Shown here: piece by piece, positions 8,844 to 27,245 of the stretch
How the letters are laid out: each line of letters starts with the position of its first letter
How positions within the stretch are numbered: position 1 is the first letter of the stretch
The notes under the pieces: generated by a model
The model's input: the letters and a program-made list of their open reading frames with translations, nothing else
The model's database searches: none
Told to the model about the DNA's origin: nothing
Assembly: GCA_965222065.1 (NCBI GenBank)
Contig: OZ244933.1
Location: 1,912,538 to 1,976,537 of the forward strand
From: Pseudomonadales bacterium
Lineage (GTDB): Bacteria; Pseudomonadota; Gammaproteobacteria; Pseudomonadales; GM7GCV1
Length of the DNA: 64,000 nucleotides
Direction: 5' to 3'
Position numbers and translations under genes: made by a program

Positions 8844-9338
8844 ATGGTAACCAAATACACTTCGACGCCAAGACAGTTATTCGGCGCTTTTATCGTTTTG
8901 ATGGTTAGCTGGCTCCTGTGGTCTGGGCTTTACAAGCCGTTGTTGATAGGTTTGGGTTTTTTCTCTTGTCTTTTGAGTCTCTGGTTAGCGAGGAGAACCG
9001 GCTTTTTCCGTCACGCCATGAAACTTTCTGCGCTGTTACGACTACCTGCTCTGTGGTGTTGGATACTGAAAGAGGTGGTAGCGTCCAGTATTGAGGTAGC
9101 ACGAATTGTGCTGTCACCATCGCTGCCAATCCAGCCCGAATTAGTTGAGCTCCCCAGCGCTGAAAAAGCTGATTCTGCCAAGGTGATTCTCGGTAATTCC
9201 ATCACGCTATCGCCAGGCACAGTCACTATTGATATTAATGAAGATCGTTTGCTGGTGCATTGTTTGTCCGCCAGCAGCGCTGCTTCACTTCGCAGTGGCG
9301 AAGTTGAGCGCCGTGTTGCCCGCCTGAAGATCAACTAA
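8844..9338 (+). CDS. mrpE: Mrp/Mnh-type cation:proton antiporter subunit E
   Basis: 164 aa with two N-terminal TM helices. 'LGNSITLSPGTVTIDINEDRLLVHCL' matches the MnhE signature. First gene of a tightly packed or overlapping cluster. Confidence 0.8.
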   Translation: MVTKYTSTPRQLFGAFIVLMVSWLLWSGLYKPLLIGLGFFSCLLSLWLARRTGFFRHAMKLSALLRLPALWCWILKEVVASSIEVARIVLSPSLPIQPELVELPSAEKADSAKVILGNSITLSPGTVTIDINEDRLLVHCLSASSAASLRSGEVERRVARLKIN

Positions 9339-9340
9339 TT

Positions 9341-9601
9341 ATGTATCTTGTAGTCTCCCTGGCAATCCTGATGACTATGGTGCTGGCATTGGCCCGTGCG
9401 CTGAGAGGTCCCACCATTTATGATAGGGTTTTGGCGGTCAATCTCTTTGGCACCAAAACCGCGTTACTGCTTTCAGTGCTTGCTTTCCTTAATAATCGCC
9501 CCGATTTTCTTGACCTGGCTTTGGCCTATGCCCTGATTAATCTGGTGGGTATTTTTGCAGTGCTGCAATTCATTCAGATGAAATTTCGAAAGCCTGACTA
9601 G
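9341..9601 (+). CDS. mrpF: Mrp/Mnh antiporter subunit F
   Basis: 86 aa, three hydrophobic helices. 'LRGPTIYDRVLAVNLFGTK' matches the MnhF motif. Confidence 0.8.
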   Translation: MYLVVSLAILMTMVLALARALRGPTIYDRVLAVNLFGTKTALLLSVLAFLNNRPDFLDLALAYALINLVGIFAVLQFIQMKFRKPD

Positions 9602-14516: not shown

Positions 14517-16215
14517 TCTCATCTCACCCGCTCTGATTATGGTGGTGGCGGCCCTGGCCATTGGTTTGGCTCGGGGGCACTTGCGTACAGCCATTGTGCT
14601 GTTGGCCCCTGTGCTGACATTGTGGGCTGTTTGGCAAGTGCCTGATGGTGTGCAGGACACAGTGCGTTTTCTGTCCTACCAGATCGAACCTGTGGAGGGC
14701 AGTCCCCTAAGGCGTTTGTTTGCGACAATTTTTGTGCTGATGGCGTTTGTTGGGGGGCTTTTTGCATTCCGCCTGGCGAAATGGTACGAGTTAGCCGCTG
14801 CCTTTTTTTATGCCGCTGGTGCCATCGGAGTGAGCTTTGCTGGCGACCTGATTTCGTTGTTTGTTTATTGGGAACTGATGGCGTTATTTTCCACAGTAGT
14901 AGTTTGGTGTGGCGGTACGGCTGCTTCTCGTGCGGCTGGCATCCGTTACGCTATTCTGCATTTGCTAGGCGGTGTGGTGCTTAAGGTCGGTATCGAAGGT
15001 GTCGTGGTCAGTACCGGTTCCATACAAATCACCCCCATGCTGGCGGAAGATTTTAATAGTTGGATGATACTTTGCGGCATCCTTATCAACGCTGCGGCTC
15101 CCCCCCTGTCTGCCTGGCTGGCGGATGCTTATCCTGAATCGAGCCCGACCGGTTCGGTATTTCTTTCCGCTTTTACCACCAAGACTGCGGTATTGGCTTT
15201 GATTCTGCTGTTCCCGGGAGAGAAGGTATTGATTGGTATTGGGCTGTTTATGGTGATGTACGGAATTATCTATGCGCTCTTGGAAAACGATATTCGCCGT
15301 ATTCTGGCCTATTCGGTGGTCAATCAGGTTGGCTTTATGGTCTGCGCAGTCGGTATTGGTACGCAGCTGGCGATAAATGGTGCCACAGCCCACGCCTTTG
15401 CTCATATTGTTTACAAGGCGCTGCTGTTCATGAGCGCTGGTGTAGTGATTTACCGTACCGGTAAAAACCGCTGTACTGAGCTAGGTGGTCTGTTTCAATC
15501 CATGCCAATAACGACTATCTGCTGCATTATTGGCGCACTGTCCATTTCCAGCTTCCCCCTTACATCGGGTTTTACAACCAAGAGCCTAATTTCCCAAGCG
15601 GCAGCGAACAATGGACTTATGTGGGTATATATGCTCCTCACAGCAGCGTCCGCAGGTGTTTTCTTGCATGCGGGAATTAAATTTCCCTGGTTTGTATTTT
15701 TTCAGAAAGACTCAGGCCTGCGTCCGAAAGATGCACCCTGGAATATGGCGCTTGCCATGATTATCTTCTCAGTAATTTGTTTGCTGTTGGGTATGTTCCC
15801 TGAATGGCTTTACCGTTTCTTGCCCTATGAGATGGACTATCAGGCATACACCGCCGGCAAGGTTGTGTTCTATTTGCAGTTATTGCTTTTCTCCGGGCTA
15901 GCCTTTTTCTTGTTCTTGCCGTTAATGAAGCGCACTGAAACAATTAGTCTGGATGTTGATTGGTTATGGCGTGTAGCTGCGCCCGCGTTAGTACGACATT
16001 TGGCTAGGGCAATAGCACCTCTGAAAAAACTTGGATTGAGGCTGGATTCAGTTAGTCGAAATTTGCTAAACCACCTGACATCCCGTTATTTTGGACAGCC
16101 TCAAATCATGGACCGAAAGGAGCGTGCTCTATTTGCGCGTTCCTGGCCAATCGGCACCACCGCGCTCTGGATAGCTATCCTGCTATCGGTATACGTTTTG
16201 CTTTACTATATCTGA
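14509..16215 (+). CDS. mrpA: NuoL/MrpA-N-terminal-like antiporter subunit with C-terminal lateral-helix-plus-anchor extension
   Basis: 568 aa. 'YWELMALFS', 'LADAYPESSPTGSVFLSAFTTK' and 'RRILAYSVVNQVGFM'. The last ~95 aa are a long amphipathic stretch ('WLWRVAAPALVRHLARAIAPLKKLGLRLDSV...') ending in one TM helix ('TTALWIAILLSVYVLLYYI'), as in NuoL/MrpA. Confidence 0.75.
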   Translation: MINLISPALIMVVAALAIGLARGHLRTAIVLLAPVLTLWAVWQVPDGVQDTVRFLSYQIEPVEGSPLRRLFATIFVLMAFVGGLFAFRLAKWYELAAAFFYAAGAIGVSFAGDLISLFVYWELMALFSTVVVWCGGTAASRAAGIRYAILHLLGGVVLKVGIEGVVVSTGSIQITPMLAEDFNSWMILCGILINAAAPPLSAWLADAYPESSPTGSVFLSAFTTKTAVLALILLFPGEKVLIGIGLFMVMYGIIYALLENDIRRILAYSVVNQVGFMVCAVGIGTQLAINGATAHAFAHIVYKALLFMSAGVVIYRTGKNRCTELGGLFQSMPITTICCIIGALSISSFPLTSGFTTKSLISQAAANNGLMWVYMLLTAASAGVFLHAGIKFPWFVFFQKDSGLRPKDAPWNMALAMIIFSVICLLLGMFPEWLYRFLPYEMDYQAYTAGKVVFYLQLLLFSGLAFFLFLPLMKRTETISLDVDWLWRVAAPALVRHLARAIAPLKKLGLRLDSVSRNLLNHLTSRYFGQPQIMDRKERALFARSWPIGTTALWIAILLSVYVLLYYI

Positions 16216-16262
16216 TGCTCTTGATAGAACAGGTTTAGGTAACAAATTGAACTTGTGAAATT

Positions 16263-16281
16263 TGGTGCCCAGGAGAGGACT
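16263..16281. repeat. Distal att repeat (copy of the tRNA-Leu 3' end)
   Basis: 19/19 identity with 27159-27177. Sequences diverge immediately on both sides. Confidence 0.85.
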
Positions 16282-16413
16282 GGGCAAATGGCAACCCTTA
16301 AAAATGATTTTTCTAAGCACCTAAGGTGTTGATTCTAAATGAAATGGTAGCATTGGGCGGATGTGCTACCAATTCAATAAAACAAAGGCTTTCCGAAGCA
16401 TCTAGATACTAAA

Positions 16414-16433
16414 TAGTAGCAGTTTTAGTAGCA
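16414..16433 (+). repeat. Two TAGTAGCA repeats 12 bp apart (putative integrase arm-type sites, distal end)
   Basis: TAGTAGCA at 16414-16421 and 16426-16433. The same octamer recurs with the same 12-bp phasing at 27054-27061 and 27066-27073, plus TGTAGCA at 27043-27049, at the integrase end. Confidence 0.5.
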
Positions 16434-16583
16434 GAACTGTTGGCGGGTAGTTTTGCATCAAAGATTAAGTCAATAGATTAGATAAGAAATTATTTTAGAG
16501 AAAGAACAAATCAGCCGAAGAGTATTTATTAATTATTTAAGAAAGCATAAAAAATACTTTTCTATTTTGAATTTCAAAACGAA

Positions 16584-16596
16584 TTGCAAATTGCAA
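16584..16596 (+). promoter_or_regulatory. LuxO-type enhancer-binding-protein box TTGCA-AAT-TGCAA
   Basis: TTGCAAATTGCAA is a perfect match to the TTGCA-W3-TGCAA palindrome reported for Vibrio LuxO at qrr promoters. It lies ~63 bp upstream of a sigma-54-like element and ~116 bp upstream of the first island ORF. A LuxO-like activator is encoded in the same operon. Confidence 0.5.
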
Positions 16597-16658
16597 ATTT
16601 ATAGATTCTCCAGCCCACAAAAATTTATAACCCATTGAAATTTATGTGTTTTTCGTTT

Positions 16659-16674
16659 TGGCATGCTATTTGTA
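16659..16674 (+). promoter_or_regulatory. Candidate sigma-54 (-24/-12) promoter TGGCAT-N5-TTGTA
   Basis: TGGCATGCTATTTGTA compared with consensus TGGCAC-N5-TTGCW. The GG is correctly placed. The -12 element reads TTGT rather than TTGC. It lies 38 nt upstream of the ATG at 16712, with a GAGGG RBS in between. Confidence 0.4.
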
Positions 16675-16711
16675 TAAGTGACGTGCAAATTAGCCAATTG
16701 AGGGAAATACA

Positions 16712-17089
16712 ATGAATCTTTCTTTGCACCAAATTGAAAACACTTTTGATAAAAGGCTGCCGTCGGAAAATAACCCAAACAGCTTGTTGCTTGTAAATTT
16801 GTCAAAAATTAACAGAGGCGTTTCAAGTTCCTTTTGTAACTTGGTGGTTATTGATGCCAGTGAGCCGGATGCCGCCTCCCGCGCGCTTTCGGTAATCCTG
16901 CCAATCTATAAAATCGCTGGGCAAAAAAAGTTTTTGCTAGTGATCAATGGGGTTCGCAATACTCTTCAGGGCCCTTCAATTTTCAAGCAAATATTAGAGC
17001 TTGTATCTTACTTGCCGGATATATCTCTTAACTATCTAGGCGATACACCTTCCAGAAAATATCTTTCTGAATTACTTATAGAAAATTAA
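16712..17089 (+). CDS. Hypothetical protein, first gene of the island operon
   Basis: 125 aa with a good RBS (GAGGG 8 nt upstream). 'VVIDASEPD...LLVINGVRN...LNYLGDTP' faintly recalls the C-terminal half of MinD/ParA ATPases, but there is no Walker A motif. Confidence 0.5.
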   Translation: MNLSLHQIENTFDKRLPSENNPNSLLLVNLSKINRGVSSSFCNLVVIDASEPDAASRALSVILPIYKIAGQKKFLLVINGVRNTLQGPSIFKQILELVSYLPDISLNYLGDTPSRKYLSELLIEN

Positions 17090-17129
17090 AACGGCTTCTG
17101 GTTTTCATAAAAATAGGGCGAAAAAGAAG

Positions 17130-17813
17130 ATGAAAAATATCATTTTCTTGATGGGCTTGGCACTTTCATCTGGATGTTCCTACTATCCTTCCACCCTCGG
17201 GCCAGTTCATCCCACTCCCGCGGGGGAATTCATCAAGTGTATAAGCGAAGAGACGCATCACTTGCCAACCTGTTATTGCAATGAATACGCAGTTAAAGCT
17301 AACCCCGAAAGAGAAAAAGTTTGTTTTGCTGCAGAGCGGTCAGATTTAAAAATTCTGGCTAGTGAAACTATTTCAAAAGAAGACTGGTTATTTGATTTCC
17401 GCGTAGAAACCGCCAAGCTAGAAAAATACGAGCCTGATGTAAATGAGTTCTGGTCCAATAATACCTTGGATTATTTGCAAGGTAACGAATTCACCGATGA
17501 TTGTGATGGGCTTGACAGCATACTGGATGTCCTTTTCTTGTTAGGTGAGTTTAGGCTGGAACAGTTGGCGAAAATACTTATGCAAGTTACAGATAATAAT
17601 CCAGAAACACCTAGATATCATTATGTCGCAGCTGTGTGGGTTGCCGGTGATTGGCTAATTTTGGATCAATCCTCTGCGGCACCATTATATCTGTCTAAGA
17701 TCACTGCCTATGGCTCAGCCCCACTCACTGTTTTAGCGCACCGTCGTCTTAATGACAGGAAATGGCGAGAGGGCTTGCCGCCTAATGTGCGTACGTTAGC
17801 TGGATACTGGTAA
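17130..17813 (+). CDS. Lipoprotein, putative transglutaminase-like cysteine peptidase (BTLCP/LapG-like)
   Basis: 227 aa with lipobox 'LALSSGC'. 'DDCDGLDSILDVLFLLG' followed by 'HYVAAVWVAGDWLILDQ' fits the BTLCP Cys...His-x15-Asp arrangement (family pattern GDCEDYA ... HaVL...lvLDN). Confidence 0.45.
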   Translation: MKNIIFLMGLALSSGCSYYPSTLGPVHPTPAGEFIKCISEETHHLPTCYCNEYAVKANPEREKVCFAAERSDLKILASETISKEDWLFDFRVETAKLEKYEPDVNEFWSNNTLDYLQGNEFTDDCDGLDSILDVLFLLGEFRLEQLAKILMQVTDNNPETPRYHYVAAVWVAGDWLILDQSSAAPLYLSKITAYGSAPLTVLAHRRLNDRKWREGLPPNVRTLAGYW

Positions 17814-17820
17814 AGCTGCT

Positions 17821-19221
17821 ATGCAAAAGGCCATTAAAGATTATGTCCCATCAGTCTTGGTTGTCGAAGATAGTATTTCGGCGGCTCGGCTTTATGAAAT
17901 TCATCTTCAGGCGATGGGCCTGGAAGTAGAAGTGGCCAATACTTCAAGAGAGGCAATTTTTCTTTGCCAGACAAAGAGCTTTGACTTGGTCTTTTTAGAC
18001 GTTGAGTTACCGGATGGCTCGGGCCTTGATATTGCAGATCAGCTTAGTGGGATAAATACCAGAGTAATTGTTATTACTGCGCTTGATACCGCGCAAATAG
18101 CGATTGAGGCTATGAAAAAAGGTGTTTTTGAGTTTTTGGTTAAACCGGTTGATGAGACTCGAATCAAGGCAGTTGTTAAACAAGCGTTGGGTGATATCAA
18201 AACAACTGCCAGCGTTAAGAGTCAAAAAGTAATAGGTGCGTCTGACGCTATTCAGGTCGTGTATCGAATGATTGATGCGGCTGCGAAAAGTGATGTATCG
18301 ATATTTATTACAGGAGAAAGTGGAACTGGAAAAGAGCTGGCAGCCATCGCAATACACGAACAAAGCGCAAAAGCAAATGAAACGTTCCATGCAATAAATT
18401 GCGCGGCAATTCCTGATGAATTAATGGAAAGTGAAATTTTTGGCCATAAAAAGGGAGCTTTTTCAGGTGCACATTTCGATAGAAACGGCGCGGCAAGTAT
18501 AGCGGATAAAGGCACGCTCTTTCTTGATGAAATTTGTGAGATGAGTCTTGATGTTCAGAAAAAGATGCTGCGCTTTCTGCAAACTGGCGAATATCAAAAA
18601 GTAGGGAGCGATTCCAAAGAACAAGCAGATGTGCGAATAATCTGCGCTACAAATAAAAATCCATTGGATGAGGTTCAGGCCGGAAGGTTTCGGCTGGATC
18701 TCTACTACCGGCTTCATGTCATTCCAATTCACTTACCTCCTTTGAGGGAGCGTAAAGGTGATATCAAATTAATCGCGGATTATTTCTTATACAAATATTC
18801 AAGGCAGGAAAATAAAAATTTCAAAGCTTTTTCGGAGGAAGCCTATGAGCAGTTATTTACATACTCCTGGCCTGGAAATATTCGTGAGTTACAGAATGTC
18901 ATACAGAACATTGTTGTTTTAAATAATGGAACAGAGGTGCAGGCAAATATGCTTCCTGTTTTATTCAAGGATGTCGGCGCAATCGGTTCAGGACAATCCC
19001 CAGTCGATACCGCAGTAACAAGGTCAGAGATAAATTTGGCCAACTTGGAACCCAATAGTGAAATGTTTGGGGATGGAAAAATTTTGCCCTTACGTGCTGC
19101 TGAAAAAATTCTTATTAATCAGGCAGTAGATTTATGTGAAGGGAATATTCCCTTGGCTGCTGCCAAACTCGGGCTTGCCCCGTCGACCTTGTACAGAAAG
19201 CTAGCATCAGAGAAACAATAA
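17821..19221 (+). CDS. Sigma-54-dependent response regulator (receiver + AAA+ + Fis-type HTH), LuxO/NtrC-like
   Basis: 466 aa. Receiver 'VLVVEDS...DLVFLDVELPDGSG'. Walker A 'GESGTGKE'. Sigma-54 contact loop 'GAFSGA'. 'RIICATN', 'FRLDLYYRL' and 'WPGNIRELQN'. C-terminal HTH 'AAAKLGLAPSTLYRKL'. Confidence 0.92.
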   Translation: MQKAIKDYVPSVLVVEDSISAARLYEIHLQAMGLEVEVANTSREAIFLCQTKSFDLVFLDVELPDGSGLDIADQLSGINTRVIVITALDTAQIAIEAMKKGVFEFLVKPVDETRIKAVVKQALGDIKTTASVKSQKVIGASDAIQVVYRMIDAAAKSDVSIFITGESGTGKELAAIAIHEQSAKANETFHAINCAAIPDELMESEIFGHKKGAFSGAHFDRNGAASIADKGTLFLDEICEMSLDVQKKMLRFLQTGEYQKVGSDSKEQADVRIICATNKNPLDEVQAGRFRLDLYYRLHVIPIHLPPLRERKGDIKLIADYFLYKYSRQENKNFKAFSEEAYEQLFTYSWPGNIRELQNVIQNIVVLNNGTEVQANMLPVLFKDVGAIGSGQSPVDTAVTRSEINLANLEPNSEMFGDGKILPLRAAEKILINQAVDLCEGNIPLAAAKLGLAPSTLYRKLASEKQ

Positions 19222-19796
19222 TGTATGGCCTAGTAAATAAAGCGATAAAGGACATGATACTTGAGAGATATGGAGAGACTATTTGGGATCAGACACTGGA
19301 AGAATCAGGTTTAGATATAGATTGTTTTATAAGCATGAATCAATACAACGATTCATATACATACGCACTTGTAGCCGCAGCATCAAAAACTTTGAAAATG
19401 CCGGGGAACGACTTTTTAGAAGATTTAGGCCACTATTGGTCTACGGTTACTGGCCCTAAAAGTTATAAAACATTGATGGACCTAACTGGTAAAGATCTTA
19501 TTAGTTTTTTAAGTAACTTAAATACACTTCATGAGCGAATTACCTCTACCTTTGTTGGTTACACGCCGCCCTACTTTAAAGTATTTCCTGATGAGGATGG
19601 TTTTATTGTCAGATACCAAAGCAAGCGTGAAGGACTACTGCATTTTGTTATTGGACTAATACAAGGTCTTGCTGACTCTTTCGCACAAAAAATAAAAATA
19701 GCTGAAGTTAACCAATGTGCTTCTAAGTCAGGTGAGACATGGCTAATAAAAGTTTTAATAGCCAATAATAATCAACAATCTTTCAGGCCATCATAA
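19221..19796 (+). CDS. hnoX: H-NOX (heme nitric oxide/oxygen-binding) sensor protein
   Basis: 191 aa starting 'MYGLVNKAIKDMI'. Proximal His104 ('NTLHERI'). Pro116/117 ('TPPYF'). Y-x-S-x-R heme-propionate motif 'YQSKR' (Y132/S134/R136). Start overlaps the stop of the upstream gene. Confidence 0.9.
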   Translation: MYGLVNKAIKDMILERYGETIWDQTLEESGLDIDCFISMNQYNDSYTYALVAAASKTLKMPGNDFLEDLGHYWSTVTGPKSYKTLMDLTGKDLISFLSNLNTLHERITSTFVGYTPPYFKVFPDEDGFIVRYQSKREGLLHFVIGLIQGLADSFAQKIKIAEVNQCASKSGETWLIKVLIANNNQQSFRPS

Positions 19797-19798
19797 AA

Positions 19799-21376
19799 AT
19801 GGACCTGGATGTCATAAACCAGATCTCGACGGTAAGTTTTTCGCTGGATAGCCACCTGAGAGTGTCAAGGACAAGTAAATTGTTACAAAAAGCCTGCCCA
19901 AATCTGGAAGGTGGGAGACTGCTTGATTTTTTTGAGGTAAGAAGGCCCGAGATTAATCATTATCAGGATTTTGTTAGAAATGCGAATGAGTTGATACTTG
20001 CCGTTTCAAAGGAGGGGGATTTCGCTTTTCGCGGCCAATTTATTTTATCTTCCGATCTGGATGGTGAACTTAAATTTGTGGGCACCCCATGGCTTTCATG
20101 GATGGCATCAAACAGCGATTTTTCTTTGAGCATAAATGATTTTCCACCTTTTGATGCTCAGCTGGACTATTTAGTCTACTTAACTACGGAAAAGCAGCGT
20201 CGTAAAGAATTGGATAGTTTGAATTGCGAGCTAAAAAAAGCAAAAGAAGCATTAGAGAGCACTTTACAGTCGCAATCAGAGTTGTTTTCAATGATGAGCC
20301 ATGAAATGGGAACACAAATAGCCTCTATTGATGCGGCTATTAATCTGATTCAGGAGAAAGAGTTAAATGAATCCGATACAAGCTTTGTCCAAATTTCAAG
20401 AAACGCGATAAAGAATCTTAGGATCATTTTTGATCAGGCACTAAATTATTCAAAATTAAAGCACAAGGGCCTTAAAAATGAACCAATAGTTTTTGAACCT
20501 GAGGAGCTATTAGCGTCAATATTGGAACCCTTCTCATCAATGATAGACGAGTCTCGCGTCAGGCTGAATTATAACTATACCGGTCCCAAAGCAATTTTTG
20601 CCGATGCCATGAAAATAAAGCACGTTTTATCAAACTTAGTTGATAACGCGCTCAAACATACTGAAAAAGGCAGCATCAATATTTTGTTTGATTTTCAGGT
20701 AGAAAGACAAAAAATTCGTTTTCGGGTTGCTGACTCGGGTAAGGGGATTCCGGTTGATCAACAACAATATATATTTTCCGAGTACTGGACATCTAAAAGT
20801 TACATAAGTAGTGACATAGGTACAGGCTTGGGTTTGGCCATTTGTAAAAAAATGCTTGACTGCATGGGTGGTAGCATTTGTTTTGAAAGCATAGAAAACA
20901 AAGGAAGTTGCTTTTATGTTGAATTGCCAGCCATGTTGGCAGACGGTTTAGATAATAATCATAGCTATCAAACAGAAGAAGTTCCTAAAGAACCGTCTTT
21001 AGGGTATGAGCAACCTAAAGGCAAATTGCTACTGGTGGATGACAACATGACAAATTGTTATCTAACTCAACTTCATTTAAATGCCCAGGGTTTTGAGGTT
21101 GAGATTGCAACAGATGGCAGACAGGCAATAGAAAAAGTCCAGCAAGATAAATTCGATCTGATTCTGATGGACATCTCTATGCCCGATATGGATGGCATAG
21201 AAGCGGCGAAACGAATCCGGGAGTTAGAACAAGGAGTGCATTTGCCAATTATAGCTTTTTCAGCTTTTGACGATGTAGAAAAGCAGTTTAATTTGAAAGA
21301 AATAGGTATATCTAACATTTTGCACAAGCCCGCAGAGATTTCAGAAATAAAAAACATAATTCAACAATATGTTTAA
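19799..21376 (+). CDS. Hybrid histidine kinase with N-terminal HNOBA/PAS-like domain (HNOBA-coiled coil-HisKA-HATPase-REC)
   Basis: 525 aa. The N-terminus aligns with the sGC HNOBA region ('FFEVRRPEINHYQDFV...LAVSKEGDFAFRGQ...KFVGTPW...INDFPPFDAQLDYLVYL'). H-box 'MMSHEMGTQ', N-box 'LVDNALKHT', 'DSGKGI' and 'GTGLGLAICK'. Receiver 'LLLVDDN...DLILMDISMPDMDG'. Confidence 0.88.
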   Translation: MDLDVINQISTVSFSLDSHLRVSRTSKLLQKACPNLEGGRLLDFFEVRRPEINHYQDFVRNANELILAVSKEGDFAFRGQFILSSDLDGELKFVGTPWLSWMASNSDFSLSINDFPPFDAQLDYLVYLTTEKQRRKELDSLNCELKKAKEALESTLQSQSELFSMMSHEMGTQIASIDAAINLIQEKELNESDTSFVQISRNAIKNLRIIFDQALNYSKLKHKGLKNEPIVFEPEELLASILEPFSSMIDESRVRLNYNYTGPKAIFADAMKIKHVLSNLVDNALKHTEKGSINILFDFQVERQKIRFRVADSGKGIPVDQQQYIFSEYWTSKSYISSDIGTGLGLAICKKMLDCMGGSICFESIENKGSCFYVELPAMLADGLDNNHSYQTEEVPKEPSLGYEQPKGKLLLVDDNMTNCYLTQLHLNAQGFEVEIATDGRQAIEKVQQDKFDLILMDISMPDMDGIEAAKRIRELEQGVHLPIIAFSAFDDVEKQFNLKEIGISNILHKPAEISEIKNIIQQYV

Positions 21377-21390
21377 GGTATGAATTTTCT

Positions 21391-21750
21391 ATGTACGATG
21401 AACCAGAACTTTTTTCAGAAAGTATTTCCAGGAAGTTCATCAATGATTTTGGTTTTGTGAAATATCTTTCTTTGATTGAGTTATTTTTACTTGAATTGGA
21501 AGAAAAAACTGAAAGCATAGAAAAAGCAATGGATGATGAAAATATGGACGGTGTTAGAAAAATTGCTCATTCATTAATCGCTTCATCTAAAGCTGTTGGA
21601 ATGATTCAGCTTTCAAAAAAATTTCAAGATATACAAGAAGTCGCAGGGATTGGTAATGCAAGTCAAACTTATAACGAAATACGCGAAATGCTATTTTTAA
21701 AAGATGAGTCTTTAAATGAGTTGCATAATTTCTTGGCGACTCAAAAGTGA
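21391..21750 (+). CDS. Histidine phosphotransfer (Hpt) protein
   Basis: 119 aa, helical. 'VRKIAHSLIASSKAVGMIQL' matches the Hpt 'HxLKGSSxxxG' motif. Lies 14 nt downstream of the hybrid kinase. Confidence 0.75.
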   Translation: MYDEPELFSESISRKFINDFGFVKYLSLIELFLLELEEKTESIEKAMDDENMDGVRKIAHSLIASSKAVGMIQLSKKFQDIQEVAGIGNASQTYNEIREMLFLKDESLNELHNFLATQK

Positions 21751-21767
21751 TAGGGGTTTGCCCCTAT
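21750..21767 (+). terminator. Hairpin directly after the Hpt stop codon (possible operon terminator)
   Basis: ATAGGGG-TTTG-CCCCTAT, a 7-bp perfect stem. No downstream T-run, so intrinsic-terminator status is uncertain. Confidence 0.3.
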
Positions 21768-22017
21768 CCAGTAGCGATGTTTGTTAATTCAAGCGTTTCA
21801 ACAAAATCAATACTAGAAGTTGGAAATATCTATCTGCATGGTTTTTTGCAGCATGTTTAAAATTTTGCTGTTTTATATCTATCCTTGAACATCGTCTATG
21901 TATTTCGTTTCTAATTTTCTATAGGCATATTTCAAATAGCTTTTTTATTTTTTACCTTTTTGGCAAAGACGAAAGGCTAAAAGCTTTGAAGAGGGTTATT
22001 AATATTAGTTTCTTTTG

Positions 22018-22131
22018 GTATCAATAAATCACCGATTTATGATGCATCTAAATGCTATCCTAATTGGTATCAAAAATTTATCTAATTGACTATTTGATAC
22101 TATCATAATATGATACCCCGATAAATGATAC
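22018..22131. repeat. Array of five TGATAC/GTATCA half-sites upstream of the serine recombinase gene
   Basis: GTATCA at 22018-22023 and 22067-22072. TGATAC at 22095-22100, 22111-22116 and 22126-22131. Extended contexts TTGGTATCAA(T/A)AAAT and A(T)TTGATAC(T/C). The array ends 19 bp before the ATG at 22150. Confidence 0.6.
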
Positions 22132-22149
22132 TATCTATCGGGAGCCCTT

Positions 22150-22734
22150 ATGTCACGTACATTTGCATACTGTCGTGTATCTACGACAGAACAGAATACA
22201 GATAACCAAATTCAAGCTATTTCAGCAGCAGGATATGATATTGATCCTAATAGGATTGTCTCTGAATCTATTTCAGGTTCTGTACAAGCTTTAAAGCGTC
22301 CAAAATTCAAAACTCTTGTAGAGCACCAGCTAGAGCCCAGTGATTGCTTAGTGGTGCTCAAGCTAGATCGTTTAGGGCGAGATAATATCGATGTCCAACA
22401 AACAGTTCAGATGTTGGCAGACAGGTCGGTTAAACTCGTTTGCTTAGATTTACCTGTATCGGATCTATCAAGTTCTGAAGGAAAGCTCATGTTGCAAATG
22501 TTTTCGGCTTTCGCAGAATTTGAGCGAAATAGAATTAGAGAACGCACTCTAGAGGGGCTGAGAAGGGCTGAGAGCGAAGGTAAGAAACTAGGAAGGCCAA
22601 AGGCTGTAAAAACAACAAAAGCGGTGCAGAGAGCAAAAGAAGAAGGTCTAAGCCAATCAAGAGTAGCAGCTAAGCTTGGTCTTGGAATAGCAACTGTAAA
22701 AAGACATTGGAATGTCAAGGAAGAAGCATTGTGA
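22150..22734 (+). CDS. Serine recombinase (resolvase/invertase family)
   Basis: 194 aa. 'FAYCRVSTTEQNTDNQ' holds the catalytic Ser. 'LVVLKLDRLGRD' and 'SAFAEFERNRIRERT'. C-terminal HTH 'SQSRVAAKLGLGIATVKR'. Confidence 0.92.
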   Translation: MSRTFAYCRVSTTEQNTDNQIQAISAAGYDIDPNRIVSESISGSVQALKRPKFKTLVEHQLEPSDCLVVLKLDRLGRDNIDVQQTVQMLADRSVKLVCLDLPVSDLSSSEGKLMLQMFSAFAEFERNRIRERTLEGLRRAESEGKKLGRPKAVKTTKAVQRAKEEGLSQSRVAAKLGLGIATVKRHWNVKEEAL

Positions 22735-23972
22735 AGAATGATGAACGCAGGGCACCCTTTACAAAGTTCAATTACGCCCTTGAAGTTAAATCCCCTGTTT
22801 TTGATAAATATGTTGATGATTTATTTGCACGGTTAAATATCACTCACCAAAAGCAAGCAAGGGCGAGAGCGCTCCGAGCAATCCTTTTAAACCTGATATT
22901 TAGTTTTTATGATTCGGTAGGTGTTTACAGGACAACATCATATACGCCCTGTAAAAGAGAAAATCCTTTTTCCATTGGGCAAAGAGCACTTTGCTCAGTA
23001 CTGGATCTTTTAGAGAGTAATAAATATATCCATCAGGCAATCGGTGACAAAACAAAGGATACGATAACAACGATTAAATTTTGTGACTCTCTTAGAGAGG
23101 AGCTAAGAGAAAATAATATTCTCGCTTATTGGGAAATGCCTGGTGGCTTGATACTTACATCAAAAGGAGACCCAGTCGTTCTTAAAACTAAAAAAGACAA
23201 AGATAATAATGAGAATGGCCGAACGATTGATTATGAAGACAGTGCCTATACAAGGAGAGTAAGAAAAGGTCTAAAGGAGTATCAGAGCTTCATGCAGGAA
23301 TATGAAATCTGGCTTGAGTATGAAAATGGGGAGATGAGTGAGCTACCAGAGTTTTCAGTTAAAAGGACTTTTAACAACTCATGCTTTAGTCAAGGCGGGA
23401 GAATCTCAGGTTATTGGGTATCAATACCAAAAGGAGAGAGGAAGTTCTTAAGAATTGAAGATGAAAAATGTAAGGAATATGACCTAGAGGCTAGTGGACT
23501 TAATTTTTTATATCGAAGAGTTACTGGTAAGCCATGTCCAAATAAAGAGCCCTATGCTGCTGAGTTTAAGGGAAAACAGATTCCTAGAAAATTTAGTAAG
23601 CTTTATCTGAATGTTGCTCAGAATACAAAGAAAAATGGAATGCATAATGCTTACATGGAAGAATTAGAAAAAAGAGCTCAAAAAAAAGAATTTAATTCAC
23701 TGGAGCTGAGCTGGAGCGATTTTTGTAGTGCCATCGAATCCAAGCATAAACCTATCCTAGATTATCTGTACCAACCAAAAATAGGAATGGAGACTCAATG
23801 GTGTGAGTCTGAGTTTGTTTTTATTTGTTTGGGTAAACTGATAAATGAAGGGATTCCAGTATTGCCCGTATATGATTCTTTTATAGTCAGGGAATTAGAC
23901 TTTGATAAAACGAAAAAACTAGTTAGTGATACGTTAGAACAGAATATGGAGGATTACCTTATAGCAGTCTAA
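22707..23972 (+). CDS. Uncharacterised island protein (possible replication/initiator-type protein)
   Basis: 421-aa ORF whose track start is TTG. An in-frame GTG at 22731 overlaps the recombinase stop (GTGA) and is an equally likely start. Motifs 'FSQGGRISGYWVSIPKGERKFLRIEDEKCKEYDLEASGLNFLY' and 'IPVLPVYDSFIV' are noted. No firm family assignment. Confidence 0.5.
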   Translation: MECQGRSIVKNDERRAPFTKFNYALEVKSPVFDKYVDDLFARLNITHQKQARARALRAILLNLIFSFYDSVGVYRTTSYTPCKRENPFSIGQRALCSVLDLLESNKYIHQAIGDKTKDTITTIKFCDSLREELRENNILAYWEMPGGLILTSKGDPVVLKTKKDKDNNENGRTIDYEDSAYTRRVRKGLKEYQSFMQEYEIWLEYENGEMSELPEFSVKRTFNNSCFSQGGRISGYWVSIPKGERKFLRIEDEKCKEYDLEASGLNFLYRRVTGKPCPNKEPYAAEFKGKQIPRKFSKLYLNVAQNTKKNGMHNAYMEELEKRAQKKEFNSLELSWSDFCSAIESKHKPILDYLYQPKIGMETQWCESEFVFICLGKLINEGIPVLPVYDSFIVRELDFDKTKKLVSDTLEQNMEDYLIAV

Positions 23973-24190
23973 AGATACCCCTACTACGTAGGAGGAATAT
24001 AGTAGTTAGAAGGGGGGGGGTAGGTTATTGTTATTGAAGAAATGTATGAAAGGGAAACAGTATTAGGAGAGGGTTTCACCCCTCCAATTAGAGAGACGTT
24101 TCTCAAAAATATCTGTTTATGTGTTCAACCAACCTAGTTGATACAAGCCTGAGTATCTCAGAATTCTAAAATATCGTCTTTAGTTTAAGA

Positions 24191-25354
24191 CTATGCTGAT
24201 AATTCCAGAGAATTTGTCCAATTTTCAAATTCTTTATCAATCGACCCTGCTTTAACTATTAGATATTTATCATGTGTTTTATCACTTATGTTTTCGGCTA
24301 CTTTTTCTAAATCAACAGGCCTATTGTGAAAACTATTTTTTAATTCCTCCAATATATAGCAGATCATATAGTCTTCTAAGTAGAGGTCTAGAGGTCGTTT
24401 TTTTCTTGCTTCAATAAAAAGTTCAGCTATTGCTCTACTACCTGCTTTAGTATCGCTGTAGGTGCTGATGCTTTCATCTACTCTTCTTACCAATAGATCC
24501 CGGTACTGTAGAAGTTTTCCCTGAAGCTTGTCGATTTTTGCGTACTTTTTATTGAGTGTATCCGTCGCCTCTTTTAGAGCTTTGATTGAATTAGGAAATT
24601 TCATAGGCTGTGAAGTATCGTCGACCTCAATAACAGCATCGATAAGACTGAGGATTGTAAAAGCTTTGTTTTTGACTAAATTTAGTATGGAGTCATTAAA
24701 ACAAGTCATCCTATGCGGACGGTGTAATCCTATTGAGCCAATCCCGCTTCCTTTAGGAGAGATATCAAGGTCTTCATACAAAGCGGGAATATTTCCCATG
24801 TATGGAAACCAGCTAGAGCAGATGTACTTGTCTATAAAATTAGCTGCTCTTTGTGACAGCTCTGTAGATGTTTCTATTAATTTCAGAAAATCATTACTCA
24901 GTGTGTAGTCGCCAAAGGTTGAATTGGGATACAACCAAAGATAGAACTTTGAATAGTTGAGTTCGATTGTATTTTCGAGGTTTAAGAGGCGTAACTGGCT
25001 GTCTAGTGTTTTAGAGAAGTATTCCATCCTCCTGTAGTGCTTGTCTAAAACATAGCTTTTATGCATCTGCTCAGAACGTCGTGTAGTAAGTTCTAATGTC
25101 CATAGAGCCAAAAGTCCGCCAAGCATCCAAAAAGGGAATTTGTATTTATTTAAAAAGTTATCAAAACACTCAGAACGAAAGCATGGTTTGGAAAAATCGC
25201 TGGCAGTAATTGCAATAAAAGATGAAAGGCATATGACTAGTGATGCATAAAATAAAAACTTGATTAACTGTTTTCCGGGCATCAGTAATTTACCTAACCA
25301 GACTAGAGTTGCGAGAACTCCTATAAGTAAAACAATTAAAGCTATCCAAAGCAT
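24191..25354 (-). CDS. Uncharacterised membrane-anchored island protein
   Basis: 387 aa. About three N-terminal hydrophobic helices ('LWIALIVLLIGVLATLVWL', 'FLFYASLVICLSSFIAITA', 'FWMLGGLLALWTL') followed by a ~290-aa soluble helical region with no motif I recognise. Confidence 0.55.
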   Translation of the reverse strand: MLWIALIVLLIGVLATLVWLGKLLMPGKQLIKFLFYASLVICLSSFIAITASDFSKPCFRSECFDNFLNKYKFPFWMLGGLLALWTLELTTRRSEQMHKSYVLDKHYRRMEYFSKTLDSQLRLLNLENTIELNYSKFYLWLYPNSTFGDYTLSNDFLKLIETSTELSQRAANFIDKYICSSWFPYMGNIPALYEDLDISPKGSGIGSIGLHRPHRMTCFNDSILNLVKNKAFTILSLIDAVIEVDDTSQPMKFPNSIKALKEATDTLNKKYAKIDKLQGKLLQYRDLLVRRVDESISTYSDTKAGSRAIAELFIEARKKRPLDLYLEDYMICYILEELKNSFHNRPVDLEKVAENISDKTHDKYLIVKAGSIDKEFENWTNSLELSA

Positions 25355-25370
25355 TGTAATTCCCTTGTTT

Positions 25371-27074
25371 TTAAGAATTCACTAAAGTCATTCCTTTCCA
25401 GCCATCCTTAAGATGTGAAATGTCTAGCCCTTTAAAAATCAGCTTTTCCTGTTCCTTGTAATAGCTAGGCATTAACTTTTCTAGGTGGTGATCTTCATGA
25501 CGGTGAATATAGCCTGACATATCGATGTCTGAACTTACCTTATGACCTACCATTACTTCGACAATTTTTTGATTTAGTGAACAGTATTCGAGAGCTTGAG
25601 TTATATAGGTTGGGCGAAAGCTATAAAGAGTCTTTTTCTGCTCTATAAAATCTTCAGGCAAATAACCACTTCTGTATCTTTGGTTCCACCACTTACTAGC
25701 TTGATCGCTAGCTTTTCTTATTCCTCCAGTGATGCCTCCAAGCATTCTTTTATGCCCCAAGCGAAACATTTCGGAAACATATTCATCAAATCCAAGTTCA
25801 AGAATGGCTGGATGTAAAGGTATTGCTCGTCTAGCTGACTCAGTTTTGATTTCAAGCCCATCTTCTGGATCATCGGTTATTAGTAAACACTTAACTCCAG
25901 CATATTCTTTGACATCAGAAATTCTTGCTTGTACCAATTCACCTGGTCTGGCTCCAGTATAAAGGCACATGATTGGTAGCCACCAATGAGAAGCAGTTGT
26001 TGTTTTTCTTTGGTGATAAGTGCTGTCGCTAACGTAAAGGTCACTGCCAAAGATCGTATTTAGATCTTCAATTGTGAAGTCTTTAGTAGGCTGACTATTA
26101 GTTTGAATAGTTACCGTATGAAAAGGATTTTGTGATACTAACTCCTTGGCACATAACCATTTATAAACAGTCCTAGCAAATCCAAGTTTTTCACTGATTG
26201 ACCTATTGCTTAAACATTCGGAAGCAGGCAAATCCATATCAATTAACTGCTTAGCATCTAGACCTGGATATTTATGTGATCTATGGGTAGGAATTTTCTT
26301 TAGGCTATCTCGGAAGTTACAAGCGTCATCATATTTAACTTTATCAACTGGAATATCGCCTAAGATAAAAACTAAATCTCTAAAAGTAGTTCTATATTCA
26401 TTTTTTGTAGTTTCTCTAATTGGCCTACCAGCTTCCTTATTGATAAGAAAATCTTCTATTACTTCCGAAAGCTTAGGTTTGTCTTTATTAGGAGAATTAG
26501 AAGATATTACTTTTTGGGGTGAAATCGATAATTGAGAAGATTCATTTTCCATCTCTTGAATTGAGCTTTTTGCATGTAAACTAATCAGCTCATCAAGTGC
26601 TTTGCCCTTTCCTGGAAGTTTGTATCCTATCTCGCCTAAATCAATTTCTAGGCTATTCAAACTGTTTTCAAAAGCTTCTCTAGCCTCTGCAGTATCTGGT
26701 TCAACTTGATATTCAATAGCCTCCCGTAATCCTCGATATGATTTGAGCCAGGCATCTAAATGTCTTTTGTAGGCATCTATATGCGTAAGGCTAGAAAAGC
26801 GGCCTTTTATTGGATCAGGAGGCTGGCTGGAGTAAAGCTGTTTAAGCTCAGCCATAACTTCTTGGTAATTATCGTCTGTTACTGCTTTCACTTTTTGAAT
26901 CCATCCTTCGTAGGCTTCTAATTTTCTGACAGCTTCATAGAGATTGTCAGTTTTGAGAGATCTTAGTATCTCCCTTTGGCCTAGTTTCTTTCTTAGCTTT
27001 GTTGGAATCTGCCAGCGAAAGTAATAGATATTGCCGCGTTTTTGTAGCAGTTTTAGTAGCAAAATTAGTAGCAA
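25371..27074 (-). CDS. int: Tyrosine recombinase/integrase
   Basis: 567 aa. N-terminal 'GNIYYFRWQIPTKLRKKLGQREILRSLKT' is the arm-binding type common in island integrases. Catalytic region 'TGARPGEL', 'ESARRAIPLHP', 'LYSFRPTYIT', 'MVGHK' and 'YIH'. No ATG at the 5' end; TTG starts at 27074 or 27062. Adjacent to tRNA-Leu. Confidence 0.88.
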   Translation of the reverse strand: MLLILLLKLLQKRGNIYYFRWQIPTKLRKKLGQREILRSLKTDNLYEAVRKLEAYEGWIQKVKAVTDDNYQEVMAELKQLYSSQPPDPIKGRFSSLTHIDAYKRHLDAWLKSYRGLREAIEYQVEPDTAEAREAFENSLNSLEIDLGEIGYKLPGKGKALDELISLHAKSSIQEMENESSQLSISPQKVISSNSPNKDKPKLSEVIEDFLINKEAGRPIRETTKNEYRTTFRDLVFILGDIPVDKVKYDDACNFRDSLKKIPTHRSHKYPGLDAKQLIDMDLPASECLSNRSISEKLGFARTVYKWLCAKELVSQNPFHTVTIQTNSQPTKDFTIEDLNTIFGSDLYVSDSTYHQRKTTTASHWWLPIMCLYTGARPGELVQARISDVKEYAGVKCLLITDDPEDGLEIKTESARRAIPLHPAILELGFDEYVSEMFRLGHKRMLGGITGGIRKASDQASKWWNQRYRSGYLPEDFIEQKKTLYSFRPTYITQALEYCSLNQKIVEVMVGHKVSSDIDMSGYIHRHEDHHLEKLMPSYYKEQEKLIFKGLDISHLKDGWKGMTLVNS

Positions 27075-27158
27075 ACCTCATATCGATAATGATGAGTTTG
27101 CTCAGAAAATCAATAAGGTACTGACTTATAAGAGGATTCTTTGTCAGTGGAATTGCTA

Positions 27159-27245
27159 TGGTGCCCAGGAGAGGACTTGAACCTCCACGACCTTGCGGTC
27201 ACCAGCACCTGAAGCTGGCGCGTCTACCAATTCCGCCACCTGGGC
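27159..27245 (-). tRNA. tRNA-Leu (anticodon CAG), type II with long variable arm, CCA encoded
   Basis: Reverse complement reads GCCCAGGTGGCGGAATTGGTAGACGCGCCAGCTTCAGGTGCTGGTGACCGCAAGGTCGTGGAGGTTCAAGTCCTCTCCTGGGCACCA. Acceptor stem GCCCAGG/CCTGGGC. Anticodon stem CCAGC/GCTGG with loop TTCAGGT. T-loop GGTTCAAGTCC. Confidence 0.93.

Follow-up and report, generated by a model that had tools for sequence, protein, structure and literature searches.

A mobile nitric oxide-response cassette with a LapG-like lipoprotein and a FleN-like fragment as predicted outputs in a Pseudomonadales bacterium

The known signalling outputs of H-NOX proteins, which are haem sensors of nitric oxide (NO), are cyclic di-GMP (c-di-GMP) enzymes, the LuxO-Qrr quorum-sensing circuit of Vibrio and syp regulation in V. 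fischeri. Herein, we describe a 64-kb stretch of a Pseudomonadales genome (contig OZ244933.1; called the window, to which positions refer unless a locus label is given) in which an H-NOX gene belongs to a six-gene cassette. The two promoter-proximal genes of this cassette, the open reading frames ORF125 and ORF227, are probably direct outputs of a mobile, self-contained NO response. This analysis newly identified the homology of ORF125 to FleN, a LuxO box accompanied by a sigma-54 promoter, and the mobility of the cassette.

Several described systems are close to this locus. In Vibrio, NO-bound H-NOX turns the kinase HqsK into a phosphatase, de-activating LuxO (PMC6759604), and chromatin immunoprecipitation sequencing (ChIP-seq) of V. 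cholerae LuxO recovered essentially qrr sites only (PMC10328515). The bacterial transglutaminase-like cysteine proteinases (BTLCP; PF06035, COG3672) include LapG of P. fluorescens and L. pneumophila, DvhG of D. vulgaris and HvyA of Caulobacter. The Asp and Glu residues beside the LapG/DvhG nucleophile are calcium ligands required for activity (PMC13090378), and HvyA has an essential upstream Trp, an H-x14-D spacing and tolerance of Asn at the third triad position (PMC4241560). FleN is an anti-activator of the sigma-54 activator FleQ and acts only as an ATP-bound dimer (PMC8528422).

Like the Vibrio H-NOX/HqsK/LuxU/LuxO/Qrr branch, the cassette places H-NOX beside a hybrid kinase, an Hpt phosphotransfer protein and a LuxO-like activator with receiver (REC), AAA+ and helix-turn-helix (HTH) domains, and a box of the form TTGCAW3TGCAA lies upstream of a sigma-54 promoter. 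In contrast to that branch, a single operon on a mobile island carries all the parts, the host is not a Vibrio, and the predicted target is the cassette's own protein-coding operon rather than a qrr small RNA (sRNA).

The gene pair and its promoter elements

Both genes lie on the + strand where the initial annotation had placed them, ORF125 at 16712-17089 and ORF227 at 17130-17813. They are followed by genes for the LuxO-like activator, H-NOX, the hybrid kinase and Hpt. Gaps from ORF227 through the Hpt gene are at most 14 nt, and one pair of genes overlaps by a base. For comparison, 99 loci were fetched (labelled L001, L005, L006 and so on), among which three lineages have long context: the window with L005, L006 with L007, and L001 with L002 and L016. 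Relative to the sister strain L005, the ratio of nonsynonymous to synonymous substitution rates (dN/dS) was 0.11 for ORF125 and 0.41 for ORF227. Because these ratios are low and the pair is kept in at least three diverged lineages, ORF125 and ORF227 are real genes under purifying selection. In each of the three long-context lineages, the small gene directly adjoins the lipoprotein gene and a sigma-54 activator is encoded no more than 2 kb away.

Upstream of ORF125 stands a palindromic LuxO-type enhancer box, TTGCAAATTGCAA (16584-16596, + strand), which fits the consensus given above. It is the sole perfect match in the window, against 0.04 expected. Of the 99 loci, only the six with the H-NOX/LuxO-like cassette have the box, and in each of them it precedes the ORF125 homologue. 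Its form in L005 and L006-L009, TTGCAATTTGCAA, is the same as that of the V. cholerae qrr2/qrr4 LuxO ChIP-seq sites (PMC10328515). A sigma-54-type -24/-12 element, TGGCATGCTATTTGT (GG-N10-GT; 16659-16673, + strand), follows 62 nt 3' of the box and 38 nt 5' of the ORF125 ATG. It belongs to a conserved block, TTTTGGCATGnTAnTTGT, that is invariant in the window, L005, L006 and L011, which represent two lineages. Across these two lineages the -24/-12 block is 53-54 nt from the start codon; its flanks diverge and the intergenic DNA is otherwise unalignable.

The initial annotation had offered the two genes as candidate outputs of an NO relay, and this proposal finds support. Since a LuxO box and a sigma-54 promoter are kept upstream of the pair in homologous cassettes, we read both genes as outputs, a status that the sequence data support well in silico. 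The regulator genes lie downstream in the same operon, and the predicted circuit would therefore be autoregulated. A second arrangement is found in the L001-type loci, which have a different activator and no H-NOX: a perfect sigma-54 consensus, TGGCACGCTTGTTGC, is positioned upstream of the same gene pair.

The control regions of related loci have further features. In L001, a 16-bp palindrome, AGTCAATTAATTGACT, occurs beside the perfect sigma-54 promoter upstream of the gene pair (9292-9372). The activator of this locus (L001 11569-12798) has no receiver domain, and a response regulator is encoded separately by a divergently oriented gene; genes for a PAS-kinase and for a response regulator with GGDEF and EAL domains lie downstream in L001-type loci. 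The enhancer regions of L006 (9307-9360) and L007 (2329-2395) carry tandem CTCAATTTGCAA units, which are extra LuxO half-sites and whose number varies by sample. A Qrr-like sRNA after the LuxO box of the window was also considered. It was rejected: no Rfam Qrr family matched at E <= 10 over 15800-22500, and only 38 nt separate the promoter element from the ATG.

The LapG-like lipoprotein ORF227

ORF227 (17130-17813, + strand) encodes a lipoprotein in which an N-terminal four-Cys module is followed by a C-terminal domain predicted to be a transglutaminase-like, LapG-like cysteine protease. The N-terminus is a lipoprotein signal, MKNIIFLMGLALSSG-C16, with the lipobox LSSG-C16 (17130-17177, + strand), and lipoboxes are kept in the homologues (L[IVYS]GC, LTAC, LSSC). 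By the E. coli rule, the Ser at position +2 points to sorting to the outer membrane. The Cys-rich module comprises C37, H44-L-P, C48-x-C50 and C65 (17238-17324, + strand); it is invariant in 6/6 close homologues and duplicated in the homologue P0010, and its four cysteines are invariant across the lipoprotein subfamily.

The putative catalytic core (17445-17666, + strand) consists of invariant or near-invariant columns in LapG register: E106-x-W108, D124-C125-D126 (17499-17507), H164 (17619-17621) and D179 (17664-17666). The motif DDCDG corresponds to D123-D124-C125-D126-G127 (codons 17496-17510), and the segment HYVAAVWVAGDWLILDQ begins at H164. The initial annotation had pointed to a Cys...His-x15-Asp arrangement. 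Its residues, C125, H164 and D179, were correct; the spacing was not, as 14 residues separate H164 from D179 (H-x14-D). Among 17 family members, phage forms included, C125, H164 and D124 are invariant and D126 is nearly so. Position 179 is Asp in 6/6 close homologues and D/E/N/H/Q in distant members. Conservation and the LapG register thus make Cys125-His164-Asp179 the predicted triad. The conserved D124-C125-D126 parallels D316/C317/E318 of DvhG, and the HvyA pattern of an upstream Trp, H-x14-D and tolerance at the third position agrees with the conservation of the ORF227 family.

Structure prediction, one of the checks proposed by the initial annotation, gave two AlphaFold2 models of ORF227 built from different alignments, which were searched against PDB with Foldseek. 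The models reached predicted local distance difference test (pLDDT) scores of 72.4 and 74.6, the second with a predicted template modelling (pTM) score of 0.75 and five concordant models. Both place Cys125 directly ahead of a helix and His164 on a beta-strand, with Asp179 where the following strand ends. For both models, PDB ranks 1-6 were occupied by six LapG chains (4u65_E, 4fgq, 4fgo, 4fgp), with E values from 9e-5 to 1.7e-3, probability 1.00 and target-normalised template modelling (TM) scores of 0.45-0.54. The next matches were other transglutaminase-like cysteine hydrolases, with E values at least 4-fold weaker. Fold neighbours also include pseudomurein endoisopeptidase PeiP, TgpA and the CPR-C4 protease. 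In the viral library BFVD, a phage protein annotated as COG3672 (BTLCP) stood at rank 4.

Sequence profiles gave a different result. The search against Peptidase_C93/BTLCP, also proposed by the initial annotation, returned no significant match: neither ORF227 nor any of the 17 family members matched PF06035 at E <= 10, whereas the positive controls LapG and DvhG scored 8.6e-16 and 1.3e-16. The only Pfam matches of the family were sub-threshold ones to DUF553 and Transglut_core, which true LapG and DvhG also give weakly. Searches of PDB with the ORF227 family profile found nothing relevant. A LapG profile was assembled from four sequences: LapG from PDB chains, and LapG of V. cholerae and DvhG, both taken from the PMC13090378 supplement. 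Aligned to this LapG/DvhG profile with hhalign, the ORF227 family gave E = 0.11, which is not significant. Over its 100 columns, the alignment sets W108, D124-C125-D126, H164 and D179 opposite the LapG W, D-C-E, H and D, and E106-x-W108 is in register with the LapG D-Y-W. In a shuffle test, the four real LapG-type sequences ranked 6th, 12th, 40th and 87th of 4004, a marginal result. The BTLCP likeness claimed by the initial annotation is thus borne out in fold and fails as family membership.

Further comparison with LapG/BTLCP proteins shows the same mixture. ORF227 shares with them predicted periplasmic export, the transglutaminase-like fold with Cys, His and Asp in the same order, the H-x14-D spacing of HvyA and a conserved Trp before the Cys, and its acidic flanks read D-C-D where LapG has D-C-E. 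Unlike soluble LapG and DvhG, which is anchored by a transmembrane helix, ORF227 is a lipoprotein. It also differs from LapG in its extra four-Cys module and in longer Trp-Cys and Cys-His spacers. Control of ORF227 is apparently transcriptional, through sigma-54, rather than by sequestration as for LapG, and no LapD-type c-di-GMP receptor is encoded nearby. Because no sequence profile places ORF227 in BTLCP, we regard it as representing a LapG-like sister family, new and extremely rare, within the modelled transglutaminase-like fold, with BTLCP as its nearest relative, and not as LapG.

This family is very rare. Five ORF227 homologues were found among 5.8 billion protein clusters and 15 relatives among 1.84 billion exhaustively scanned cluster representatives, while none occurred in 185,579 GTDB species genomes. 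PLSDB plasmids gave no ORF227 match, and INPHARED phages, queried with the distant relative P0014, gave none either. A wide-alignment homologue search recovered 8 proteins only, of which 0/8 had a BTLCP domain. Scans of ORF227, ORF125 and their families against Pfam, NCBIfam, PHROGs and PADLOC found no significant family.

Phages or prophages encode relatives of the catalytic domain that measure about 160 aa and have no signal peptide (L012 8001-8468, L013 8001-8483, L100 5959-6444 and L101 5968-6459), and 20 IMG/VR contigs carry relatives. The phage genes sit in nin-like accessory regions, and two adjoin endolysin genes. These neighbourhoods were considered as a clue to the function of ORF227 and dropped as uninformative, the regions being nin-like accessory ones with endolysin genes only sometimes near.

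ORF125, a P-loop-less FleN/FlhG-like fragment

ORF125 (16712-17089, + strand) encodes a predicted cytoplasmic protein of 125 aa that is homologous to residues ~149-225 of FleN/FlhG and has no P-loop. A profile built from six homologues defined by synteny matched FleN (E = 5e-7) and FlhG (E = 1e-5) in PDB, and no other match was found at E <= 0.1. In this alignment, ORF125 residues 46-122 correspond to FleN residues 149-225. Searched as a single sequence against PDB, ORF125 matched FleN alone (E = 0.38), and the L001 homologue searched alone gave E = 8e-6. Database matches to ORF125 were near-identical only; diverged homologues were recovered via synteny alone. No Walker A motif in any form is present. 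The initial annotation had seen a weak resemblance of the 125-aa protein to the C-terminal half of MinD/ParA without a P-loop, and the FleN profile match agrees with it. The accompanying statement that the two genes do not encode signalling proteins is doubtful for ORF125, the sole detectable relatives of which are anti-activators of a sigma-54 activator.

Like FleN of P. aeruginosa and FlhG, the anti-activators of FleQ/FlrA, ORF125 has a beta-alpha-beta-alpha-beta core ending in Y-[LV]-G-x-[IVT]-P. As with FleN, it is associated with a sigma-54 activator and placed under a predicted activator-dependent promoter; fleN is likewise FleQ-dependent. Unlike FleN/FlhG, ORF125 lacks the deviant Walker A, switch I, switch II and the membrane-targeting helix, is under half the length and cannot be an ATP-driven dimer switch. 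The C-terminal FleQ-binding stretch (FleN 254-280, the RGHLE loop) is absent, as ORF125 stops at about the equivalent of FleN residue 228. Helix alpha5, which with residues 254-280 forms the main FleQ-contact parts of FleN, is missing as well. The retained segment covers the FleN residues T174, R175, D201, D205 and V206, which contact the FleQ lid. In activator/anti-activator feedback pairs such as PspA-PspF, the product of the leading gene in a sigma-54 operon may in turn act on the activator of that operon. ORF125 has no homology to PspA, and an interaction between ORF125 and the cassette activator is purely hypothetical. An anti-activator role for ORF125 is an attractive but weakly grounded hypothesis, because the main contact surfaces of FleN and its ATP-dependent dimer are missing.

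Three side observations concern ORF125 and its position. The 179-aa FleN-like homologue of L001 (9459-9995) contains KGHLD (residues 150-154) at about the core distance of the FleN RGHLE loop; as an equivalent of that loop it was rejected as probable chance, being neither kept in L017 nor present in ORF125. On one marine contig (L010 141-716), a PilZ-domain protein of 191 aa occupies the ORF125 position directly upstream of the lipoprotein homologue. It has no similarity to ORF125 and was rejected as a homologue; the replacement hints at a link to c-di-GMP or flagellar control. No flagellar genes are present in the window, in which the remaining genes are housekeeping genes. A GAPDH comparison aimed at placing the host reached a best identity of only 60-68%, to assorted Gamma- and Betaproteobacteria. 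Inside ORF125, a sub-threshold Rfam match to a DnaX frameshift element (16859-16897; 23 bits, gathering threshold 35) lies over a GC-rich hairpin and is probably due to chance.

Regulators, mobility and competing explanations

The activator gene (17821-19221, + strand) encodes a LuxO-like response regulator and sigma-54 activator with REC, AAA+ and Fis-type HTH domains. NCBIfam LuxO is its best match (524 bits), with the REC/AAA+/HTH architecture present. Unlike Vibrio LuxO, it falls under the 800-bit equivalog cut-off. Its L1 loop reads GAFSGA (residue 212), unlike the GAFTGA canonical for sigma-54 activators (PMC8528422). The H-NOX gene (19221-19796, + strand) encodes a haem NO sensor with the YQSKR motif at residue 132 (PF07700, E = 6e-43). 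It is followed by genes for an H-NOX-associated hybrid histidine kinase with HNOBA, HisKA, HATPase and REC domains in Pfam and NCBIfam (19799-21376, + strand) and for a LuxU-like Hpt phosphotransfer protein (21391-21750, + strand; PF01627, weak NCBIfam LuxU match). A GC-rich hairpin at the operon end (21749-21768) is a possible terminator; the assignment is weak, with a T-run on the minus strand only.

By analogy with Vibrio, NO should switch this operon off (PMC6759604). The biofilm-dispersal logic drawn by the initial annotation, in which NO sensing is wired to a periplasmic protease, therefore probably has the wrong sign.

The cassette is carried by a 10.9-kb low-GC island (16263-27177), which is integrated at the 3' end of a tRNA-Leu(CAG) gene and bounded on both sides by a perfect 19-bp direct repeat. 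The left repeat, attL, is TGGTGCCCAGGAGAGGACT (16263-16281), a perfect repeat of 27159-27177; the latter, attR, is the 3' end of the tRNA gene (27159-27245, - strand). GC content is 0.34-0.42 inside the island and 0.50-0.57 outside, falling from ~0.50 to ~0.38 at the left repeat. Besides the cassette, the island carries a serine recombinase (resolvase) gene (22150-22734, + strand; PF00239, E = 3e-35), two unknown genes and a gene for a DUF6538 protein (25371-27074, - strand). In the last, only DUF6538 and no recombinase catalytic domain was detected; because the gene adjoins the tRNA/att end, its product is assumed to be the island integrase.

Between the window and L005, the backbone is 99.3-99.5% identical (synonymous divergence, dS, 0.014-0.027), while the island is 93.7-95.7% identical (dS 0.12-0.18). 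The lower identity of the island suggests that variants of it were acquired independently, or replaced one another, at one and the same att site. The same six-gene cassette is found at another chromosomal site in L006 (9112-15778) and L007, as a low-GC insert (36-37% vs 49-50%); there it is flanked by trkH and a lipid-A acyltransferase gene and is not accompanied by an integrase. The six genes thus move jointly, an argument for a common function.

Other features of the island and its relatives are recorded here. In L005, the attL region is duplicated ~110 bp apart. In L006/L007, the lipoprotein gene is cut short near residue 199 by an IS3-family element, which also parts it from the regulators; this was seen in at least 4 samples. 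Repeats of GTAGCAGTTTTAGTAGCA(G/A)AA at 16416-16436 and 27044-27076, just inside each island end, may be arm-type recombinase binding sites. An island protein of 387 aa (24191-25354, minus strand) has a weak PADLOC 2TM_IV match (E = 2.4e-7) and may be anti-phage defence cargo.

On balance, we favor the explanation that ORF125 and ORF227 are the promoter-proximal genes and direct outputs of this mobile cassette. The LuxO-type activator would bind the TTGCAAATTGCAA box and fire the -24/-12 promoter 62 nt downstream. On the Vibrio analogy, it would be phosphorylated and active without NO and would turn off once NO binds H-NOX. ORF227 would be exported, lipidated and probably anchored in the outer membrane. 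There it would be an active cysteine hydrolase of the transglutaminase-like fold with the triad C125/H164/D179, D124 and D126 flanking the nucleophile at the place of the LapG calcium site, and it would most likely cleave or modify a specific periplasmic or surface protein. ORF125 would be a remnant of the FleN/FlhG fold that is cytoplasmic and has no ATPase site; its most plausible role would be that of a protein-protein modulator, through feedback to the sigma-54 activator encoded with it or through interference with an ATPase of the MinD type.

A number of results weigh against this explanation. The -12 element reads GT instead of the near-universal GC, and the count of one sigma-54 motif in the window (0.20 expected) is not significant alone. 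No separate promoter was found for the regulator genes; this counts against the model because a purely self-activated operon needs some basal expression. For ORF227, the missing PF06035 match, the hhalign value and the marginal shuffle ranks belong here, as do the moderate confidence of the models (pLDDT 72-75) and a TM score of ~0.5. The window holds no candidate substrate of ORF227. For ORF125, the loss of the main FleQ-contact parts and of the ATP-dependent dimer stands on the same side.

The conserved position and sequence of the box and promoter amid unalignable intergenic DNA make it highly improbable that the pair are not relay outputs, that is, that these elements are fortuitous or serve another factor, with the genes as mere island cargo or ORF227 as a non-catalytic structural lipoprotein. 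The GT at -12 and the motif count would fit such a view. It is opposed by the restriction of the box to cassette loci, the perfect sigma-54 promoter of the independent L001-type loci, the co-transfer of the pair with its regulators at two insertion sites and the invariance of C125 and H164 in 17/17 members, phage forms included. If the pair are outputs, ORF227 might be a functional LapG. In this model, that of the initial annotation, it would cleave a giant adhesin of the LapA type at a di-alanine site within the N-terminal retention module, and the NO relay would govern surface attachment through the amount of protease. Its nearest structure is LapG, its D-C-D parallels the calcium/nucleophile motif D-C-E (PMC13090378) and it is predicted to be exported to the periplasm. 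We nevertheless regard this as very unlikely. ORF227 lies outside PF06035, yet even the divergent DvhG scores 1e-16 there. No LapD, type I secretion system or giant, LapA-like adhesin is encoded in the window (largest ORF 764 aa, RNase R) or in any related locus, and the cassette moves between genomes without a substrate gene. Signal-less phage relatives cannot act on periplasmic adhesins, and the expected sign, with NO turning the operon off, would favor attachment rather than dispersal.

Action of ORF227 on another envelope target, such as capsule or exopolysaccharide export, peptidoglycan-linked peptides or a lipoprotein, whether as hydrolase, deamidase or transglutaminase, is a tentative option and, in our estimate, only somewhat unlikely. 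BTLCP targets are diverse, HvyA controlling capsulation in Caulobacter (PMC4241560), and the fold neighbours PeiP, TgpA and CPR-C4 protease as well as the two phage relatives beside endolysin genes fit this option. However, linked genes for capsule or cell wall are absent from every locus, signal peptides are missing from the phage relatives, which are located in nin-like regions rather than lysis cassettes, and the data do not discriminate between the candidate chemistries. For ORF125, the corresponding alternative is an anti-activator that binds the AAA+ domain of the cassette activator, as FleN does for FleQ and PspA for PspF, leaving ORF227 as the sole true effector. Its only detectable relatives are FleN and FlhG, it is always found beside a sigma-54 activator and under a sigma-54 promoter, and the segment touching the FleQ lid is retained; a trans-acting regulator would also make sense for the L001-type activator, which has no receiver domain. 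The absence of the RGHLE loop, helix alpha5 and the ATP-dependent dimer, the erratic occurrence of KGHLD and the unrelated PilZ protein in the same place in L010 nevertheless make this role unlikely.

The favored explanation, in which both genes are outputs of the cassette, brings sensor, relay, activator, promoter and two candidate effectors together in one low-GC cassette, an unusually clean link from NO to effector. It would mean that activators of the LuxO type also control protein-coding genes directly, and do so outside Vibrio. It also adds two undescribed families, rare LapG-like lipoproteins and P-loop-less FleN-derived proteins that are always beside a sigma-54 activator. Were ORF125 an anti-activator, the FleN-FleQ principle would be reused in a minimal, nucleotide-independent form. 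A bolder and quite unlikely form of the proposal is a portable NO switch, in which an H-NOX-fed LuxO-type activator drives an outer-membrane BTLCP-like protease and an ATPase-less FleN fragment in place of Qrr or c-di-GMP enzymes. If so, the protease would remodel a surface or periplasmic protein, and the FleN fragment would feed back on the activator or titrate host FleN/FlhG, coupling NO to flagellar genes. Such a switch would amount to a new half-MinD family of regulators for sigma-54 activators and a new protease family, both moving with their sensor.

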